32,000 nucleotides of DNA from Halomicronema hongdechloris C2206 (GTDB taxonomy: Bacteria; Cyanobacteriota; Cyanobacteriia; Phormidesmidales; Phormidesmidaceae). Below the pieces are notes generated by a model, which ran no database searches, was not told where the DNA came from, and worked only from the letters and a program-made list of their open reading frames with translations. The position numbers and the translations under genes were made by a program. Positions 1,502-9,746 of this stretch are shown in pieces (the first letter of the stretch is position 1; every line of letters starts with the position of its first letter). The stretch is from assembly GCF_002075285.3 (NCBI RefSeq), contig NZ_CP021983.2, forward strand, positions 870,001-902,000, read 5' to 3'.

Positions 1502-1864
1502 TCAGGAGTTACCTGCTTCCTCCTCCGATACATCAAACATCAATAGATGCTTGATGAACCCTGCTGCCGCTGCTGCTGCGTAAAGTTGCCAGGGCTTGTC
1601 TTTAGTGCCGTCTTTAGTATCGTCCGCATAGTCACACAAGGCACGGACAATAAGACATCGTATCCGTTGATCCCATGCCGCTTTGCTGACACCATATCCT
1701 TCCATTTCAATTGCCCGAATTCTTCGGCTATAGGCAGCAATCCTATCTCGCACGTCGGGATCGGCAATGACGTTGTCTCCGGAAGCAATAACACCAATCT
1801 CGACTCCAGGGTAAGTTCCAGTATCATTAGGTCGCTCAGCAAGAATGGGAAACTTTCTTTTAGG
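1502..1864 (-). pseudogene. C-terminal part of a nucleoside phosphorylase superfamily (PNP_UDP_1-like) gene, separated from its upstream part by IS66 insertion
   Basis: KRKFPILAERP...GVEIGVIASGDNVIADPDVRDRIAAYSRRIRAIEMEGYGVSKAAWDQRIRCLIVRALCDYAD carries the C-terminal MTA/SAH-nucleosidase-like motifs (xEMEG, R..CDYAD). The first four codons of ORF 1502..1876 (GTGACCAGTTAC) are IS terminal sequence. Confidence 0.75.
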
Positions 1865-3443
1865 GTAACTGGTCACCGCAATAGTAGAGGCTTAATGAGA
1901 AAGCCTCTGACGACCCAGACTTATCCTGGTAACAGAACAGGAGGCGAGCACCCTGATGAGGCGAGGAGCTCAAAGAGCTGGTCTACCGCGTTTTCACCCT
2001 GACGGCGCATCGATTCGAGGAAGCTGACCATCATCGCCACGAGCTGAGCCCCCCACTCACTGCGGGCACCGCCACTGACGTTGCGATGAATCACCACCGG
2101 CCGTAGGCCTCGCTCCGCATCATTGTTGTCCGGGTTAACCTCAGGCTGAGAGAGAAAGGTAAACCAGTCTGAGCAATAGCGACGAAACCGGTTGCTCAAG
2201 GCTTGAGAATCAGCGGTCCAACGCCCGTTGGGGGGGTGCTCAAGCACATGGGCTAATTCTGCCTCGACAATCGGCCGCAGCGCTTGGAGTTCGCCGAGAC
2301 TGAATTGACCCCAATGATAGTCCCGGTGGGCCTGCCGAGCGGTCTGAATAATCGGCAAGATGCGCTGGGCGAACTCTCGATTTTCCGGGAAGCGAGAGAT
2401 TGTCAATGCCTTTAAGTCCCGCTCAATGTGGGCCCAGCATTTCTGCTTGGCGGCGGCCGATTGCGGCCCGTAGGCGGACCAGCAGTCGCTGCTGAGGACG
2501 CCCGCAAACTCGCCTCCCAAAAGCGCGTTGACTTCTGCCGAACTGCGGGTAGGGGCAAAGAACAGCACACAGCACTCGGGGGCGGTGGCAATCCACAGCC
2601 AATGATTCACCCCGTTCAAGCGATAACTGGTCTCATCGACACAGCGCACCCCCGGCTGTTGAATCCAGCTCCACCAGTGCTCATAGGCCGGTTGTAAGGC
2701 CTCGCAAAACCACTGATGCAGCTTCGCCAAACTCCCCTGAGACATCGGAATCCCGAAGATACTCTCGACCACATAGCGCTGTTTTGACCACGATAAGTTG
2801 CCGCCATACCCCAGCCAACCCACCACACTACTCAAGCGGCCGCCATAGCTAAACCCCTCCCGGCATCCCAGCGGCAAGTCCTGATAGCCTTGCCACTCGC
2901 AGGCGGGACACCGATACAACGGTCGCTCGTACTCCCAAATCTCGACGAGCTCTGGCACTAATTCGGCCACTTGCTGTCGCTTTGTCCCTTGGGGTTGGCG
3001 CTCCACTGCACCGCCGCAGATCGGGCAACTCTGCATGTCGAGTAACACGCTGTGGTCAATCCAACCAAAGCCATGGCGGGTCGTGCCAGGGTGGTTGTAT
3101 TTGGGGCCTCGTTTTCGCTGGGACTTTTGCTGATCCCGCTTCGGTTTCTTGGGGCCATCAGAGGATGGCGGCTGTGAGCTGGTTTCACTGGTCCGCCGGG
3201 TTAGCTTCCTGAGCTTCTCGCTCAGGGTCTCGAACTGCTCCTCGAGCTCTTTCACCCGTTGCGTCAGGCGCTCTGTCTCCGCTCGTTGCTCGCAATAGCG
3301 CTCGTACCCGTACCTCGCCCCTTGCTCTTCAGGGTCGATCTCGGAGAGGGTTGGCTCTGGCTGCGGTGGCTTTTTCATGTCCTCTACTCTACCGACTTTT
3401 GCCTGTTTCGCAATAGGTGGGTCTTGTTGCGGTGACTAATTAC
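1865..3443 (-). mobile_element. IS66-family insertion sequence, single-ORF type, apparently intact
   Basis: Terminal inverted repeats GTAACTGGTCACCGCAA (1865-1881) and, reverse-complemented, GTAATTAGTCACCGCAA (3443-3427) match at 15/17 and start with GTAA. A perfect 8-bp direct repeat CTTTTAGG flanks the element (1857-1864 and 3444-3451). Length is 1579 bp. Confidence 0.85.
1921..3378 (-). CDS. IS66-family transposase (TnpC-like, DDE)
   Basis: 485 aa uninterrupted. It has an N-terminal coiled-coil/leucine-zipper region, zinc-finger-like CPICG...CPACE, and DETSY...SDCWSAY...CWAHIERD...NPDNNDAERGLRP motifs typical of IS66 transposases. Confidence 0.9.
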   Translation of the reverse strand: MKKPPQPEPTLSEIDPEEQGARYGYERYCEQRAETERLTQRVKELEEQFETLSEKLRKLTRRTSETSSQPPSSDGPKKPKRDQQKSQRKRGPKYNHPGTTRHGFGWIDHSVLLDMQSCPICGGAVERQPQGTKRQQVAELVPELVEIWEYERPLYRCPACEWQGYQDLPLGCREGFSYGGRLSSVVGWLGYGGNLSWSKQRYVVESIFGIPMSQGSLAKLHQWFCEALQPAYEHWWSWIQQPGVRCVDETSYRLNGVNHWLWIATAPECCVLFFAPTRSSAEVNALLGGEFAGVLSSDCWSAYGPQSAAAKQKCWAHIERDLKALTISRFPENREFAQRILPIIQTARQAHRDYHWGQFSLGELQALRPIVEAELAHVLEHPPNGRWTADSQALSNRFRRYCSDWFTFLSQPEVNPDNNDAERGLRPVVIHRNVSGGARSEWGAQLVAMMVSFLESMRRQGENAVDQLFELLASSGCSPPVLLPG

Positions 3444-3721: not shown

Positions 3722-5341
3722 TCATCCTCTGGTAATTTAAGGAACTATGGATGAGCAATATCTCAATCAGCCAGAGGGAATTCCTTTAGAAGACTGGGAG
3801 CGCACTCCAGTCAGCGTCAAGCAACTGGTTGGCCAGTTGAGTCAGCGCCTGGTGCAGTTAGAGCATCAATACCAGGACATGCAAGCGCAGATGCAGTTGC
3901 TGCAAGAGCAACTCAACCGGAACTCAACCAACTCATCGCAACCCCCGTCATCCGACCCGCCGCAGGTCGAGCCCCGTCGTCGTCGCCGCAACCGAGGTCG
4001 AGGCCGAGGCGGTCACCCCGGCCATCCCGGCCACCATCGCCGGTTGTTTGCGCCTGAGGCGTGTGAGACTATCAGCGATCATTATCCCGAGACCTGCGCC
4101 AACTGTGGTGCGGCCTTGAGCGGAGAAGACCCGAATCCCTATCGGCATCAAACCGTGGAGATGCCACCGGTCGTCCCTCAAGTGAAGGAATATCGCTTGC
4201 ACCAACGGGTCTGTCCCCAGTGTGGTCATCGGACTCGTGCCAAATTGCCAACCGGTGTTTCTAGTCACGTTTATGGGCCTCGAGTCGTCGCTACGGTCGG
4301 TGTGCTCAGTAGTCTGTATCGCCCTCACAGCGCCTGGTGCAACAGGCCATGGCCGATTTATTCGGCCTCCCAATAGCCCTGGGCAGTGTCAATAATCTGC
4401 GCCAACAAGCCAGCGAGGCGGTGGCTGAACCGGTCGAGGTCGCCAAGACCTATGCTCGCCAACAACCGATTGTGGGCTCAGATGAAACCAGTTTTTCCCA
4501 AGGCAATGTGGATGGTCACAATCCTGAGGGACGTCAAGGTTGGCTCTGGGTGGTGGTGACGCCCTGGGTGAGCGTCTTTGAGGTGTTTCTCCATCACTCC
4601 CAACAGTCCGCCCAGGCCCTCTTAGGCGCAACGTTCGATGGCATTTTGATTTCAGATCGCCACAGCGCCTACACCTGGGTGGCCTTGGAGCGTCGGCAGC
4701 TCTGTTGGGCGCACTTGAAACGAGACTTCACCAAAATTGCCGAGCGCACAGGGGTGTCTCAAGGTTTAGGTGAGGCGCTGCTCGAGCAAGAACAGGCGTT
4801 ATTTAAGCTCTGGTATCAGGTTCGAGATGGCACCTTAGCGCGTCCACAGTTTATCGAGGCGGTGAAGCCGATTCGCGAGCAGGTGAAGGCCCTGCTCACC
4901 GAAGGCGCTAGCTATGCCATCGGCCCTAAAGAGAAGACGCCGTTGGCGAAAACGGTGCGCACCTGTCAACGCTTATTAACGGTGGAACCGGCCCTCTGGC
5001 TCTTTATCACAGTGGAGGGGGTGGAACCGACTAATAATGATTCTGAGCGAGCGTTGCGACCAGCGGTCATCTGGAGAGGCATTAGTTTTGGCTCCCAGAC
5101 GAAGGCCGGCAGTACCTTTGTGGCTCGAATGCTGACGGTGATAGCAACACTACGTTCTCAAAATCGCAGTATCCTCGAGTACATGACTGAGGCCTGTCGG
5201 GCAGCCCGTGAGGGGAAACCGGCTCCTTCATTATTGCCGCAAACTCCTAATACACAAGAGCGGGACTCACTTGCGGCTTAATACCCACTGGTCGATTACG
5301 GTTTCAAAGACTCGACCAACAATCTTTCACTACGCCTGCAC
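3676..5341 (+). mobile_element. second, different IS66-family element (boundaries approximate)
   Basis: Subterminal inverted match GTGAGGCGTA..GTGAAA (3688-3710) against reverse-complemented GTGCAGGCGTA.GTGAAA (5341-5322). A GTAA-type start is possible at 3676. I could not find a clean 8-bp target duplication. Confidence 0.55.
3747..5281 (+). pseudogene. IS66-family transposase interrupted by a single frameshift
   Basis: ORFs 3747..4376 and 4337..5281 are the N- and C-terminal parts of one IS66 transposase (CANCG...CPQCG zinc finger, DETSF, SDRHSAY, CWAHLKRD, PTNNDSERALRP). The frame changes at about 4320-4325: ...SSLYR then SQRLVQQAMADLFG. One base appears to be missing in tatcgccctcacag. 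Confidence 0.85.
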
Positions 5342-5354
5342 AAATCACTCAGAG

Positions 5355-5434
5355 GGCTAACGGTGAAAGCCAGCGGCGGTAGGTGACCTATGCGGCTTGG
5401 CCAGAGCTTTTAGACCGTCCGCTGCGCTGAGGTG
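5355..5434 (-). other. integron attC site (attC_A), major part: R' box, both L arms and the first base of R''
   Basis: Minus-strand R' is GTTAGCC (5361-5355). Arms 5369-5379 (GCCAGCGGCGG) and 5415-5427 (CCGTCCGCTGCGC) pair as 11 bp, with T5418 and C5425 extrahelical on the plus (bottom) strand. G5434 plus 7375-7380 restores GTTAGAC, the complement of R'' GTCTAAC. Total length is 86 nt once the intron is removed. Confidence 0.7.
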
Positions 5435-5932
5435 GTACGCCCGGCACGGGCGTGAACTAATGGGGTGAAAGTCCCCTGTCGGAGAACCAGTGTCCAAATG
5501 CTCGAAAGCTAATTGGAGCCGAGAGACACCAACGACTAGCTTAAGGCAAGGGCGTTTCCGCGAGGGAGGGTCTGGAGGAAGCCAGCGGCAAAGCTGCGAG
5601 CCGACGGACAGAAACATCATAGAAGGCCGAGATTCCTGGGGCGAGTCTGCCACACAAGACAAAGCCCTCTGGTTCAGGGAACACGGTAAATGGCGCGGTT
5701 GTGCAGGGACAGTTCACGGTCTTATCCGGGGAGGTCTGCCCAGGTGCAGCCAGGGGCGCTAGGGAAGTCGGACTGAGGGCCATCCCGAAAGGGCTGGACA
5801 ACCCACCGAATCCTACGGCAACTCAGGCAGCGCGGCTAACGGCAACGTGAGGCGAACTGGGCAGAAGTCAGCCGAGGTCATAGTAGCTGCGTTGGCAGCG
5901 AAGGACCGAACAGTGTCAAATAAGGAGGAGCC

Positions 5933-7270
5933 ATGACGGACTCAGACGTATCAATGAACCTGGATAGGGGAGACACGGTCTGGCGCACGGTCATGCAGCC
6001 AGCCTTAGACATCAACCTGATGGCGAAGGTGGTAGCGAAAGCCAATCTGCAGAAGGCATGGCAACGAGTGAAGTCAAACCAGGGAGCACCCGGCAGTGAC
6101 GGGATGTCTCTGGAAGCCTTTCCAGGCTATGCCCGCGAGCATTGGCCCACCATTCGTCAGTCCTTGTGGAATGGAACTTACCACCCTCAACCCGTGCGGC
6201 GGGTGGTAATACCCAAACCAGGGGGTCGAGGGGAAAGATTGCTCGGTGTGCCCTGTGTGGTCGACCGCGTGATTCAACAAGCCATTCTGCAAGTGCTCAC
6301 GCCAATCTTTGACCCCGGCTTTTCCGAGTCAAGTTTTGGCAGTCGCCCCCAACGCTCGGCTCATGGAGCCATTGCCCAGATAAAGGGCTATCTGAAGGAG
6401 GGCTATCGCGTCGCGGTGGATTTGGACTTAGAGAAATTCTTCGATACCGTTCATCATGATGTGCTGATGTCCCGCGTTTCACGCAAGGTGCACGACAAAG
6501 TGCTTCTGAAACTGATAGGCCGCTATCTACGAGCTGGCGTCATGGTGGACGGCATCATCCAGGCAACGGCATGGGGAACCCCGCAAGGGTCGCCCTTGTC
6601 GCCGCTGCTCGCCAACATTTTGTTGGCTGAACTAGATCAGGAACTGGAGCAGCGAGGCCACCGCTTTGTGCGCTACATGGATGACTTGGTCATTCTGGTC
6701 AGAAGTGAGCGGGCAGGCAAGCGGGTCATGGCTTCTGTGAGTCGATATCTGACCCAAAAGCTGAAGCTGAAGGTGAATCGGCAAAAGTCCCAGGTAGTGA
6801 ATGTCCATGACTTGGAATACCTCGGATTTCAATTTCGAGGGATCCGAGTCTATTGGTCGGACCAAGCCTTTGCAGACTTTAAACACCGACTGAAAGGGCT
6901 AACGGCCCGCAGTTGGCGCGTCTCAATGGCCCATCGCCTGGAGCGATTGAACCAGTACTTGAGAGGCTGGATGGGTTACTTTGGCATCTCGCAGTATTAT
7001 CACTCGATACCGGATCTCGATGGATGGCTGAGGCGTCGCCTTCGGATGTGTTACTGGAAACAGTGGCGTCGACCGCGCACGCGCATTCAGAAGCTCCTGG
7101 AATTGGGGACGGATAAGCGTCATGCGATTCGGACAGGCATTAGCCGTAAGGGCTATTGGCACCTGTCGCGAACGCTGGCAACGCAAACGGGGATGACCAA
7201 TGAGTGGTTAGCAAAGCAAGGATTGTTGTCGATACGTGACCTTTGGATGAAAGCCCAGGGTTACATTTAA
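5933..7270 (+). CDS. group II intron reverse transcriptase/maturase (no endonuclease domain)
   Basis: 445 aa. RT motifs are present, including YMDDLVILV (YxDD), plus a maturase/X domain (RLNQYLRGWMGYFGISQ). The protein ends shortly after the X domain with no HNH/En extension. Confidence 0.95.
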   Translation: MTDSDVSMNLDRGDTVWRTVMQPALDINLMAKVVAKANLQKAWQRVKSNQGAPGSDGMSLEAFPGYAREHWPTIRQSLWNGTYHPQPVRRVVIPKPGGRGERLLGVPCVVDRVIQQAILQVLTPIFDPGFSESSFGSRPQRSAHGAIAQIKGYLKEGYRVAVDLDLEKFFDTVHHDVLMSRVSRKVHDKVLLKLIGRYLRAGVMVDGIIQATAWGTPQGSPLSPLLANILLAELDQELEQRGHRFVRYMDDLVILVRSERAGKRVMASVSRYLTQKLKLKVNRQKSQVVNVHDLEYLGFQFRGIRVYWSDQAFADFKHRLKGLTARSWRVSMAHRLERLNQYLRGWMGYFGISQYYHSIPDLDGWLRRRLRMCYWKQWRRPRTRIQKLLELGTDKRHAIRTGISRKGYWHLSRTLATQTGMTNEWLAKQGLLSIRDLWMKAQGYI

Positions 7271-7301
7271 CAACCCAGGTTAGTGTTTGCTCCTTGATGC
7301 T

Positions 7302-7374
7302 GAACCGCCCTGTGCGGACCCGCTTGCAGGGTGGTGTGGGAGGGGGGATTCGTGAGGATTCTCCCTATCCCGAT
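7302..7374 (+). ncRNA. group II intron domains V and VI
   Basis: DV (~7304-7335): ACCGCCCUGU pairs with GCAGGGUGGU (10 bp), with a UU bulge on the 3' strand, a 3-bp distal helix GCG/CGC and a 4-nt loop. This 32-nt form is short, as expected for class C. DVI (7338-7370): a 14-bp helix with a GUGA tetraloop and a bulged A7367 lying 7 nt from the 3' end. Confidence 0.75.
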
Positions 7375-7380
7375 TTAGAC
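7375..7380 (-). other. remaining 6 nt of the R'' box of attC_A (3' exon side of the intron)
   Basis: TTAGAC lies immediately 3' of the intron. With G5434 it forms GTTAGAC on the plus strand, which is GTCTAAC (RYYYAAC) in cassette orientation, starting 3 nt after the stop of the protease gene. Confidence 0.7.
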
Positions 7381-7383
7381 CGT

Positions 7384-7791
7384 TTACGGCGACTTGGGCT
7401 TAACCTCGAATTCCATCTTAGAGCGATAAAAACATATGTCGAACTCCACAAAAAAGTTCGTCTGACCTAGAATCAATGGTGCATTGGGGCCTTTAGTCCA
7501 AGCAAAGGCTAATTGAACTGGAGCGATATCTCCAACTTGAACCATCGCGGAGAATGGTGTAGCTGGTTGGTTGCCCAAATTTCCTGCCAGTTGAATGATT
7601 GCTCTGCTGTCGTCCCAGGTGGCCCCAAGCTGTAGACCCAGTTCATAAGGCATAACGTTGACGGTTGCGCCACTGTCAACCAGGCCGAGGGCTTCAACTG
7701 TACGCCCCTCGCGACGAAGAATGAGCGGCACCCGTGGAAGACTATCGAACTCGTTCTGGGAGGTATCGGTGGTGGAATAGCGGAAACGCAT
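7384..7791 (-). CDS. retropepsin-like (clan AA) aspartic protease
   Basis: 135 aa with the active-site motif LVDSGAT, followed by a flap-like region and ILGQTNFF. The size is typical of single-domain bacterial retropepsin-like proteins. Confidence 0.75.
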   Translation of the reverse strand: MRFRYSTTDTSQNEFDSLPRVPLILRREGRTVEALGLVDSGATVNVMPYELGLQLGATWDDSRAIIQLAGNLGNQPATPFSAMVQVGDIAPVQLAFAWTKGPNAPLILGQTNFFVEFDICFYRSKMEFEVKPKSP

Positions 7792-7796
7792 GACAA

Positions 7797-8006
7797 TTAA
7801 GCCTGATCCGCTGACTTTAAAGCTTGCATTAACGTAGCGCCCGCCCCAAAGCTGTTGTAGGGGGTCGGCAAATCATAGGTTTTGAAGGGTTCCAAGGGCG
7901 AGACATCCTCTGCTGCTTCTAGATCCTCTGCCAAAATCCGAATCAGCTTAAGTTTTTCTGTGATAGAGAGTTGTCGAATGGCGGGAAGAACATCAATAAG
8001 AGTCAT
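7797..8006 (-). CDS. small antitoxin-like protein ('addiction module component'-like N-terminus)
   Basis: 69 aa. MTLIDVLPAIRQLSITEKLKLIRILAEDLE resembles the helical N-terminus of putative addiction-module antitoxin components. Its stop lies 5 nt before the protease start. Confidence 0.55.
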   Translation of the reverse strand: MTLIDVLPAIRQLSITEKLKLIRILAEDLEAAEDVSPLEPFKTYDLPTPYNSFGAGATLMQALKSADQA

Positions 8007-8172
8007 TTTTCAATGTCTAGGATAAAAAACTGTTAGCTCTTCAAGTCTAGCCAATTTTGTGCTGGCTCGGTCGGACACCGAGCAACCTTCAGCGATTTTT
8101 CAATACTACAGAGAAATATCTAGTTCCTCCTCCTTACACAGGTTTTGGCTTTCACGGTCTAACTCTATGTTT

Positions 8173-8382
8173 TCAACGCCGATTTCTATTACGTTCCGTC
8201 ACCCTAAAATAGGTCTCTATCATTGACGAAAGAAAAGCGACAATTATGAAGATACCTCCACAAATTACGCCAAACCATAAATTTGACTGAGATGTTAAGC
8301 CTCCATGAAAAATTATTGCCCCCGCAAGAAGCACAAACTGTGGTTCGAGTTCTTTTCTCATCATCAATTTCCCAAAGAACAA
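8173..8382 (-). CDS. hypothetical small membrane peptide (weak call; TTG start, alternative ATG at 8364)
   Basis: This is the only minus-strand ORF between two GTTAGACCG boxes (8418-8410 and 8163-8155). It has two hydrophobic stretches, lies in AT-rich sequence and matches no recognisable family. Confidence 0.3.
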   Translation of the reverse strand: MFFGKLMMRKELEPQFVLLAGAIIFHGGLTSQSNLWFGVICGGIFIIVAFLSSMIETYFRVTERNRNRR

Positions 8383-8409
8383 AAAACAATCGCTGAGAAT
8401 CTGAATCGT

Positions 8410-8588
8410 CGGTCTAACTTGTAATTGATCAGCATTACCTCCCTCGAAGCGGTCTAATCCACCTCTGCGGAGGTATTATCTACCATTCGTGCTAGATAAT
8501 ACTCCTCAGGGAAGATATAGCCAGCAGAAAACCGGTCTAATCACCCGATTGAGGGGGGTATCCATCATCTATGCAATCTAATCACCCT
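8410..8588 (-). repeat. direct-repeat array of the integrase-box-like motif CGGTCTAA(C/T)
   Basis: Plus-strand copies: CGGTCTAAC at 8410-8418, CGGTCTAATC at 8450-8459 and at 8533-8542, and ATCTAATC at 8576-8583. TCTAATCACCC is repeated at 8537-8547 and 8578-8588. The same 8-mer also occurs at 8155-8162 and, inverted, at 5410-5417 and 7375-7382. Confidence 0.7.
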
Positions 8589-8743
8589 AAATCCAGGGAT
8601 TAGGCGGCTAGAAAGCTCGATAAGATCCCAATCAGGGGTGTTATCCAGCACTTGACGCAGATAATAGCCTTGAAACGGTGAGTTATCCGGCTAACTTCAG
8701 CAAAACTTTATTTAGAGTATGGATATATTCCAGTGTGATATTT

Positions 8744-8757
8744 AGTACACTAGTCCT
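8744..8757 (+). promoter_or_regulatory. candidate cyanobacterial LexA-type operator overlapping the putative intI promoter
   Basis: AGTACACTAGTCCT differs at one position from my recollection of the cyanobacterial LexA box RGTACNNNDGTWCB. It lies just downstream of an extended -10-like TGTGATATT (8734-8742) and 24 nt upstream of the intI ATG. Confidence 0.25.
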
Positions 8758-8780
8758 ACTCATGTGTCTGCTACTCACCC

Positions 8781-9746
8781 ATGGAACCCCGACCTAGGAA
8801 GCTGCTCGACCAGGTTCGAGATGCTATTCGGCTGAAACATTATTCCTATAAAACTGAGCAGACCTACGTAGGTTGGATTCGTCGCTATATCCTTTTCCAC
8901 AACAAGCAGCATCCCAAGGAAATGGGTAGTGCTGAGATTGAGGCATTCTTGACTCATCTCGCTGTTGAACAGCAGGTGTCAGCCTCGACTCAAAATCAGG
9001 CATTCAGTGCTCTGCTGTTTTTATACCGTCAGGTCTTGAACCAAGACTTAGGTAGCTCTATCAATGCTGTCCGGGCTAGGCCATCCCGGTATTTGCCAAC
9101 GGTGCTCACCAAGGCTGAGGTGAGATCAATACTCAGCCGGGTGACTAAGAGTCCCGGCCTCGTGATTCAGATACTCTACGGTAGTGGCTTACGGCTCAAT
9201 GAAGGATTGCGGCTACGCGTCAAAGATTTGGATTTTGCCCAGCGTCAAATTATCGTCCGTGATGCCAAAGGCCACGAAAGTCGAGTCACAATGCTCCCAA
9301 GCAGTTTGATTGACCCTCTACGGCAGCATCTACAGCATGTGAGGCGGCTTCATCAGCATGATTTAGACCGGGGGTATGGTTCGGTTTATCTTCCCTTTGC
9401 ATTAGAACGCAAATATCCCTATGCCGATCGCGCCTGGATTTGGCAATTTGTATTTCCGTCTCTATCAAGATCCAAAGATCCGCGCAGTGGGCTGGTTAGA
9501 CGACACCATCTACATGAAAGTAGCGTGCAGCGAACGCTCAAACAGGCAGTTCGGGAGGCCGGTATCCCAAAACGAGTCAGTTGTCATACGTTTCGACACA
9601 GTTTTGCCACCCACCTGCTTGAAGATGGCTACGACATTCGCACTGTGCAGGAACTGCTAGGGCACAAGGATGTAAAGACGACTATGATTTATACCCACGT
9701 GCTGAATCGAGGTGGGTGTGGGGTACGTAGTCCGCTGGATGGGTAG
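8781..9746 (+). CDS. intI: integron integrase (IntI-type tyrosine recombinase)
   Basis: 321 aa. It is collinear with IntI1 as I recall it: [50 protein letters not shown], the IntI-specific insertion [21 protein letters not shown]...[15 protein letters not shown], then [52 protein letters not shown]. Catalytic R, HxxR and Y residues are all present. Confidence 0.93.

Follow-up and report, generated by a model that had tools for sequence, protein, structure and literature searches.

How did a group II intron come to lie inside an attC site of a cyanobacterial integron, and at which base of that site did it enter? The question is raised by a 32,000-nt stretch of Halomicronema hongdechloris C2206 DNA (NCBI RefSeq assembly GCF_002075285.3, contig NZ_CP021983.2, positions 870,001 to 902,000 of the forward strand), which was analyzed as a whole and is referred to below as the window, with positions counted from its first base. 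A first-pass annotation, made from the sequence alone, had placed a group IIC intron at 5435-7374 within the R'' box of an attC hairpin. The locus is a chromosomal integron, with an integrase gene (intI) and attC sites of the same orientation at 5355-7380 (attC1, interrupted) and 95-181 (attC2). In our reading it is highly likely that a group IIC intron of the attC sublineage entered attC1, the site that closes the first cassette of this integron, by retrohoming into the bottom strand of the site while this was single-stranded and folded. The features discussed are collected in Table 1.

A complete group IIC intron with exact boundaries

Three Rfam models matched the + strand of the proposed intron, each above its gathering threshold: RF02001 at 5554-5720 (123 bits), RF01998 at 5831-5906 (57 bits) and RF00029, which covers domains V and VI (D5 and D6), at 7303-7374 (41.2 bits). 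The last of these matches terminates precisely at the proposed 3' end, 7374. At the other end, 5435 was the first homologous base in a comparison with about 60 related introns from other genomes, and the 5' region aligned with that of an S.ma.I2-like intron. Two cyanobacterial introns (L004 and L007) were 83-85% identical to the window intron at the nucleotide level over its full length. D5 and D6 folded strongly (z = -4.6), and the structural features that had been annotated, including the 32-nt D5 with its 3-bp distal helix and the bulged A7367 of D6, were all found where they had been placed; the window D6 was identical in L004, L007, L014 and further relatives. With its compact domain I (D1), its short D5 and the bulged adenosine in D6, the RNA thus has the ribozyme architecture of group IIC. 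Based on these results, the identity of 5435-7374 as a complete group IIC intron is confirmed. Its 5' GUACG, previously taken to be unusual, is common to the S.ma.I2-like intron (L002), to L083 and to most relatives, and is therefore a trait of the lineage and no anomaly.

The boundaries were further defined by uninterrupted homologs of the site. The 69-aa and 135-aa gene pair of the first cassette was present in four loci (L088 from Nodosilinea, L089, L090 and L091), and the empty-site comparison covered L088, L089 and L091. In these three loci the gene pair is followed by an uninterrupted attC that reads ...GTAAACGGTCTAACACCTCAGCGCAGCGG...GGCTTTCACCG/TT... (here and below, a slash within a junction marks the insertion or crossover point). 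The uninterrupted sites read ...GGTCTAACACC[T/A]CA..., with L091 agreeing with the window through ...GGTCTAACACCTCAGCGCAGCGG. When 5435-7374 was deleted from the window, the resulting sequence over the junction was the same as that of the empty sites; exons ligated at the proposed splice sites would read ...GCUGAGGUG/UUAGACCG. Hence, the intron boundaries are exact.

The split hairpin is an attC site and was entered on its bottom strand

Deletion of the intron joins 5434 to 7375 and restores an 86-nt element, GGCTAAC...GTTAGAC, in which G5434 is the first base of R''; the DNA fold and the identical empty sites both bear out the recreated GTTAGAC at the base of the hairpin. As single-stranded DNA the restored site folded at -14.3 kcal/mol into an R-box stem (GGCTAAC with GTTAGAC, pairing at 6/7 positions), unpaired 5-nt spacers and an L-box stem, whose 3' arm carries the single-base bulges T5418 and C5425. 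Its top strand, GTCTAAC...GTTAGCC, conforms to the attC format RYYYAAC...GTTRRRY, and its 86 nt fall within the attC size range of about 57-141 nt. When 20 cyanobacterial attC sites were aligned, 86.5% of the cells at paired positions were pairing, compared with 73.5% after shuffling (0/500 shuffles as high), and double-sided changes numbered 58 against 23 in the shuffles. Slid controls gave pairing of just 23-45%, and both bulged bases were invariant across the 20 family members.

A covariance model of this attC family (R1) matched 5355-5441 on the + strand with 65.5 bits and attC2 with 70.2 bits on the + strand versus 15.8 bits on the - strand; as both window sites belonged to the training set of R1, what is informative is the difference between the strands and the lack of any other site, the model finding only these two in the window, both on the + strand. 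The position of the bulges on the 3' arm, together with the strand preference of the model, identifies the + strand as the bottom strand. The hairpin is accordingly confirmed as a genuine attC, and the intron occupies its bottom strand, antisense to the cassette genes at 7384-8006, as the first-pass annotation had described. The first seven bases of the intron, GTACGCC (5435-5441), come close to a perfect complement of the attC R' box by their likeness to GTTAGCC (5/7 positions), probably by chance; it is because of this resemblance that R1 still reaches 65.5 bits over the interrupted site.

In related cyanobacterial loci, a hidden Markov model (HMM) of the family, built from attC1 and a few relatives, detected numerous copies that share a strand and are spaced by about 1 kb, which is the pattern of a cassette array. 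Four copies were present in L091, four or five in L014 and in L030, and two or three in L004; the empty site of L091 is one of the four in its array. A generic attC scan (AAC...GTT, at least 6/7 R-box pairs, constrained fold) returned 212 matches, mainly in coding DNA, and was set aside as uninformative in favor of the family HMM and the covariance model.

The cassette boundaries follow the same logic. Homology between the window and L088, L089 and L091 extends from the ATG at 8006 to 5357-5360, the G/TT crossover of R', and the flanks diverge from TT on; homology between cassette copies thus stops where a cassette bounded by attC should end. The sequence TTAGCC (5360-5355) after the G of the attC1 R' box completes an R' box with 7/7 complementarity to the R'' of attC2. 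Likewise, the TTAGAC with which cassette 1 begins completes a box that matches the R'' of that cassette (GTCTAAC) at 7/7 complementary positions.

Lineage of the intron-encoded reverse transcriptase

The reverse transcriptase (RT) matched TIGR04416 with 394 bits and, among Pfam domains, RVT_1 and GIIM only, in agreement with the annotated absence of an endonuclease domain. Among RTs of solved structure it scored 449 bits with GsI-IIC and 356 bits with the Eubacterium rectale IIC enzyme (E.r.), far ahead of LtrA (IIA, 143 bits) and TeI4h (IIB, 92 bits), which, together with the short D5, assigns the intron to class C. All RT and X-domain regions were alignable to those of active class C RTs, and the active-site motif YMDD was shared with the closest relatives, L006 and L007.

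A neighbor-joining (NJ) tree was computed for 43 RTs with 200 bootstrap replicates and with GsI-IIC, E.r., L083 and L084 as outgroups. In it, a clade of L001, L002, L086, all relatives of 57-90% identity and the window excluded the four outgroups in 173/200 replicates (86%). Within this clade the window fell into a cyanobacterial subclade with L004, L006 and L007 that had 100% support. The phylogeny supports a placement of the RT inside the attC sublineage of class C, the class to which it had been assigned at first pass. Searches of plasmids with tblastn retrieved the integron introns L001, L002 and L086, of which L002 lies between aadA1 and merE and adjoins intI1, while L086 adjoins arr-2 and intI1, a context that matches the one published for Kl.pn.I1. 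IntI homologs were found within 6 kb of several proteobacterial members. As a contrast set we used the terminator-inserted class C introns L083 (Cohnella), L085 and L087, which have G+C-rich hairpins and T runs as their 5' exons.

The IIC-attC lineage has been described since 2002, and the element is a new cyanobacterial member of it. Contrary to what had been supposed, the lineage is not rare: GTDB species genomes yielded at least 507 confirmed relatives. We found no published report of IIC-attC introns in cyanobacteria.

A one-base shift of the insertion point and the pairing that may explain it

The consensus insertion point of IIC-attC introns in R'' is TTGT/T, which is a majority trait (PMC7923331). 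Accordingly, L002 reads ...AATTGT/GTACG...CCCGAT/TAGAC, and L086 reads likewise with /TATGC. For 40 related complete copies both flanks could be compared; 38 of them restored GTT as GT/T, with the GT coming from the 5' exon. Only in the window does the 5' exon supply G alone (G/TTAGAC), one base upstream of the canonical GT/TAGAC, and the canonical TTGT/T junction is replaced by GGTG/T. The earlier view of G/TT as the known position of the lineage therefore does not hold. The window site, GAGGTGTTAGAC, nonetheless holds a perfect canonical target (GGTGT/TAGAC), and in L093, a metagenomic contig, a related intron sits at the canonical GAGGTGT/GTACG in the same attC type. A second GAGGTG/GTACG junction was found in contig L092, and in L056 no GTT was restored.

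We located exon-binding site 1 (EBS1) as CACA at 5651-5654, where the lineage usually has ACAA. The CACC at about 5527-5530 that had been suggested for this role lies upstream of the EBS1-hairpin homology and is unrelated to the exon. The register of the pairing with intron-binding site 1 (IBS1) was defined by covariation in 45 distinct copies: loop positions 3-6 formed 163 pairs with exon positions -1 to -4, compared with 136 ± 3.7 after permutation (0/5000 as high), and the variable positions -3 and -4 by themselves formed 73 pairs, compared with 54 ± 3.4 (0/5000). The usual loop, GC-ACAA-CA, goes with an exon ending ...UUGU, and the closest relative, L004, has EBS1 ACAC with exon GUGU/U. 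In the window, the loop GC-CACA-CA faces the exon GGUG with C-G, A-U and C-G pairs. EBS1 CACA was also found in L056 (Thiorhodococcus), a member of another clade, whose exon ends in AGUG. This intron of Thiorhodococcus drewsii (5416-7415 of L056) lies after ...TTTAGTG/ and before TATGC, with no obvious attC.

The shift to GUG/UU can be ascribed to the C at the first EBS1 position, most relatives having ACAA or ACAC and a target xxGU/U. We lean toward the view that a register change in the EBS1 loop, from GC-ACAC-CA to GC-CACA-CA, retargeted the intron from GT/T to G/TT and that the same change arose independently in the purple sulfur bacterium L056. If this is true, EBS1 pairing, and no constant spacing from the attC stem-loop, would determine where these introns insert, and IIC-attC introns would diversify their targets within cyanobacterial integron arrays.

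Weighing of alternatives

Class C introns in general insert after hairpins, and the outgroup copies L083, L085 and L087 follow G+C-rich hairpins and then T runs. The hairpin in the window could on that basis be an ordinary terminator-like or repeat palindrome, entered by an IIC intron of the general terminator-targeting kind whose proximity to a tyrosine recombinase gene is accidental; the occurrence of the gene pair with its hairpin outside obvious integrons, for example beside EF-G in L088, would fit such a coincidence. We find it hardly credible, because the hairpin combines RYYYAAC and GTTRRRY boxes with spacers of 5 nt and with two single-base bulges that are invariant, and has no T run, because its family forms the same-strand arrays of L091, L014 and L030, because cassette homology stops exactly at G/TT of R' while each cassette start is fully complementary to its own R'' box, and because the RT sits in the attC lineage. 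The neighboring recombinase is moreover an integron integrase (TIGR02249, 481 bits), with XerC/D models far below their cut-offs. A history in which the intron first entered at the canonical GT/T, and G/TT arose later through small indels at both junctions or through an assembly error, is very improbable as well, even though attC1 holds the canonical target, the ACAC of L004 would pair with GUGU and L093 documents an insertion of exactly this kind. It requires two compensating 1-nt changes, the loss of a T at the 5' junction and the gain of a T at the 3' junction, and it has to account for a deletion of 5435-7374 that restores the exact sequence of uninterrupted homologs. The intron's own CACA fits GUG and not GUGU in the covariation-defined register, and both the combination of CACA with GUG/ (in L056) and the GAGGTG/GTACG junction (in L092) recur elsewhere.

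It is also conceivable, and in our view unlikely, that the element is an immobile relic, an old insertion that is no longer spliced or mobile and whose sole present effect is the disruption of attC1. The intron is present as a single copy in the window, its exact RT protein is recorded on one contig only, the EBS1-IBS1 pairing is short, neither an outward promoter nor an obvious dedicated one was detected, and two IS66-family elements have already degraded the array around it. On the other side stand the intact 445-aa open reading frame (ORF) with its YMDD motif and alignable RT and X-domain regions, the Rfam scores of every ribozyme domain, and the strong fold of D5 and D6. Several observations weigh against our preferred interpretation, that of an attC-lineage intron retrohomed into the attC1 bottom strand. 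The tree is an NJ tree only, with four non-attC outgroups, 86% support and no curated reference set. The EBS1-IBS1 covariation uses related sequences, and the permutation count should therefore not be read as a true probability; the helix in the window has only 3 bp, with a G-A mismatch at position -4, and EBS3 was not located. The single intron copy visible in the window counts here too, as does the ambiguity of the attI crossover between 8418 and 8163. An internal outward promoter (Pout) in D1/D2 has been proposed as conserved in IIC-attC introns (PMC3001079). No sigma-70-like site of this type was found on the - strand of 5435-5935 with a scan consensus of the E. coli type, from which cyanobacterial promoters differ.

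Surrounding cassettes and mobile elements

The interrupted attC lies 1.4 kb from intI, which is divergent from the cassettes. The putative attI was identified solely from GTTAGAC motifs and repeats. The sequence GTTAGACCG occurs exactly twice (0.13 expected), at 8410-8418 and 8155-8163 on the - strand, 255 bp apart, and a second GTTAGAC motif lies at 8163-8157 on the same strand; either copy could be the attI crossover. Between the copies there is a hydrophobic 69-aa ORF (8382-8173) with no attC, and this segment may represent a cassette that has decayed or may belong to a long attI. The covariance model detected no attC at 7381-8780, and homology upstream of the 69-aa gene of cassette 1 never rose above that of shuffled sequences, so that no 5' boundary of the cassette emerged from this comparison.

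The 69-aa and 135-aa genes of cassette 1, with their attC, form a very widespread and strongly conserved cyanobacterial module with 75-93% amino-acid identity, in which homology begins exactly at the ATG. The 135-aa protein had 2175 cyanobacterial homologs and a weak Pfam match to Asp_protease_2. The module was seen both inside attC arrays (L091) and in the seemingly ordinary chromosomal setting of L088, beside EF-G. The start of cassette 1 reads GTTAGAC-C-GTGAAAGCC (8147-8163, - strand) and its attC end GGCTTTCAC-C-G/TTAG (5355-5371, + strand); in a circular cassette 1, a perfect inverted repeat of 9 bp, formed by GGCTTTCAC and GTGAAAGCC, would lie on either side of R'. The repeat may be a remnant of earlier recombination or an alternative hairpin.

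Cassette 2 runs from 5360 down to 95 and is closed by attC2, which bears a canonical intron target, GATTTGT/TAGCC. The position of attC2 extends the array to at least 8 kb from intI. The cassette holds two IS66-family transposase genes, for which terminal repeats were searched and not found. The second of these genes ends 74 bp from attC1 and is directed toward the intron, so that read-through from it could provide transcripts of the 5' exon. The toxin-antitoxin-type gene pair and the truncated phosphorylase fragment in the same cassette are of a kind typical of chromosomal integron arrays. Elsewhere in the window, an inverted duplication at 24-32 kb had been suspected from equal ORF lengths (670 and 377 aa, each twice), and no repeat was found. 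The first 670/377-aa pair matched PilB- and PilT-type secretion ATPases; the second follows grpE and, solely on account of this position, is taken to encode DnaK and DnaJ.

Table 1 Features of the interrupted attC site, its intron and the surrounding integron.
Feature	Position	Strand	Description	Evidence or remark
attC1, 5' part of bottom strand	5355-5434	+	R' box GGCTAAC 5355-5361, spacer, L' and L'' arms, variable loop; bulges T5418, C5425	
attC1, 3' remainder of R'' box	7375-7380	+	TTAGAC; T7375 = IBS3	Empty-site comparison
Complete group IIC (attC-lineage) intron	5435-7374	+	1940 nt, 5' GUACG to AU 3'	Rfam, 5' homology, empty sites
Domain V	7304-7335	+	32 nt: 10-bp lower helix, UU bulge, 3-bp distal helix, GACC loop	RNA fold, RF00029 alignment
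Domain VI	7337-7372	+	A7367 bulged, putative branch point, 7 nt from 3' end	RNA fold
RT/maturase ORF	5933-7270	+	445 aa, intact, active-site YMDD	
EBS1 loop	5649-5656	+	GCCACACA, loop of hairpin 5645-5660	RF02001 alignment, copy alignment, covariation
IBS1	5431-5434	+	GGUG; G5432, U5433, G5434 pair with C5653, A5652, C5651	
Integron integrase intI	8781-9746	+	Pfam Phage_integrase, SAM_4	TIGR02249 481 bits versus cut-off 265
Putative attI	8410-8590	-	GTTAGAC 8418-8412; GGTG(A/G)TTAGA(C/T) repeats 8586-8576, 8545-8535, 8462-8452	
Cassette 1 genes	7384-8006	-	69-aa ORF 8006-7797; 135-aa retropepsin-like ORF 7791-7384	
attC2, uninterrupted	95-181	+ (bottom strand)	AGCTAAC...GTTAGCC, 87 nt, bulged T and C	R1, DNA fold
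IS66-family transposase gene, in cassette 2	1921-3378	-		Pfam DDE_Tnp_IS66, zf-IS66, DUF6444 (both IS66 genes)
IS66-family transposase gene, in cassette 2	3747-4376 plus 4337-5281	+	Frameshifted	
DUF433/DUF5615 (PIN-like) toxin-antitoxin-type pair and truncated PNP_UDP_1 phosphorylase fragment, in cassette 2	798-1456, 1502-1876	-		

Proposed mechanism and consequences

From the arrangement at attC1 we infer how the intron could have entered, whether it might still be active and how it would affect recombination. The intron ribonucleoprotein would recognize the attC stem-loop, which would substitute for IBS2. EBS1 would pair with the last three exon bases, GUG (5432-5434), and EBS3 with the first base of the 3' exon, T7375, upon which the intron RNA would reverse-splice between G5434 and T7375. 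The RNA would then be copied by the endonuclease-less RT, with priming presumably by the nascent replication strand. With an intact RT ORF and well-conserved ribozyme domains, the element may still be active.

With TTAGAC now 1.94 kb from G5434, the R-box duplex required by IntI should not be able to form, and attC1 is presumably dead as an IntI substrate. The first-pass annotation had expected the insertion to freeze the upstream cassette; we too would expect a block, of a different scope. Since attC1 bounds cassettes 1 and 2, both would lose independent mobility and are presumably locked together, while the composite could be moved via recombination of attI with attC2. The intron and the two IS66 elements together make the array a case of immobilization by other mobile elements.

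The locus extends the attC-targeting class C lineage, earlier documented mainly in proteobacterial resistance and chromosomal integrons, to the chromosomal integrons of filamentous cyanobacteria, where its subclade is large. It also offers a natural case, with empty-site controls, in which an altered EBS1 accompanies a one-base shift of the insertion inside R''. Such a case is useful for understanding, and possibly for reprogramming, the recognition of a hairpin plus only 3-4 bp of pairing by IIC introns. Current understanding of these introns is not overturned.

Relation to known introns

The IIC-attC introns of class 1 integrons, S.ma.I2/E.c.I7 and Kl.pn.I1, have the same ribozyme class and the same 5' end as the window intron (GUACGCCC...GGGC...GAACUAAUG.GGUGAAAGUCC). 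They encode a likewise endonuclease-less RT of about 49-52% amino-acid identity in the same RT-tree clade, and their insertions, too, are within R'' on the bottom strand of an attC and run opposite to the cassettes; the gene order intI, cassette, intron is also shared (L002, L086). The host setting differs, a cyanobacterial chromosomal integron in the window versus plasmid-borne resistance integrons for S.ma.I2 and Kl.pn.I1. The junction is GGTG/TTAGAC in the window, one base upstream of TTGT/TAGAC or TTGT/TATGC in these two introns, and EBS1 is CACA instead of ACAA. The RT active site is YMDD in the window and YADD in S.ma.I2 and Kl.pn.I1. The -10 element of the P1out promoter is not conserved, with TTGCCA-N17-TTTAAT in L002 and TTGCCT-N17-TCTCTC at the corresponding position of the window.

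The nearest known elements are the introns of Leptolyngbya sp. PCC 7375 (L004), Leptolyngbyaceae SM1_4_3 (L007), Nodosilinea and other cyanobacteria, with 73-90% RT identity, 83-85% nucleotide identity and an identical D6. They target the same attC family with its bulged T and C. In these introns, however, insertion is at the canonical GT/T with EBS1 ACAC, ACAA or ACCC, whereas the window intron has CACA at G/TT. The terminator-targeting class C introns (GsI-IIC, B.h.I1-type; L083, L085, L087) share the ribozyme architecture and the RT family (52% identity between the window RT and GsI-IIC), and they resemble the window intron in relying on an upstream DNA hairpin together with a short IBS1 and IBS3. 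They differ from it in their position behind G+C-rich terminator hairpins that carry T runs, where they lie downstream of genes and in the sense orientation, and in falling outside the attC clade.

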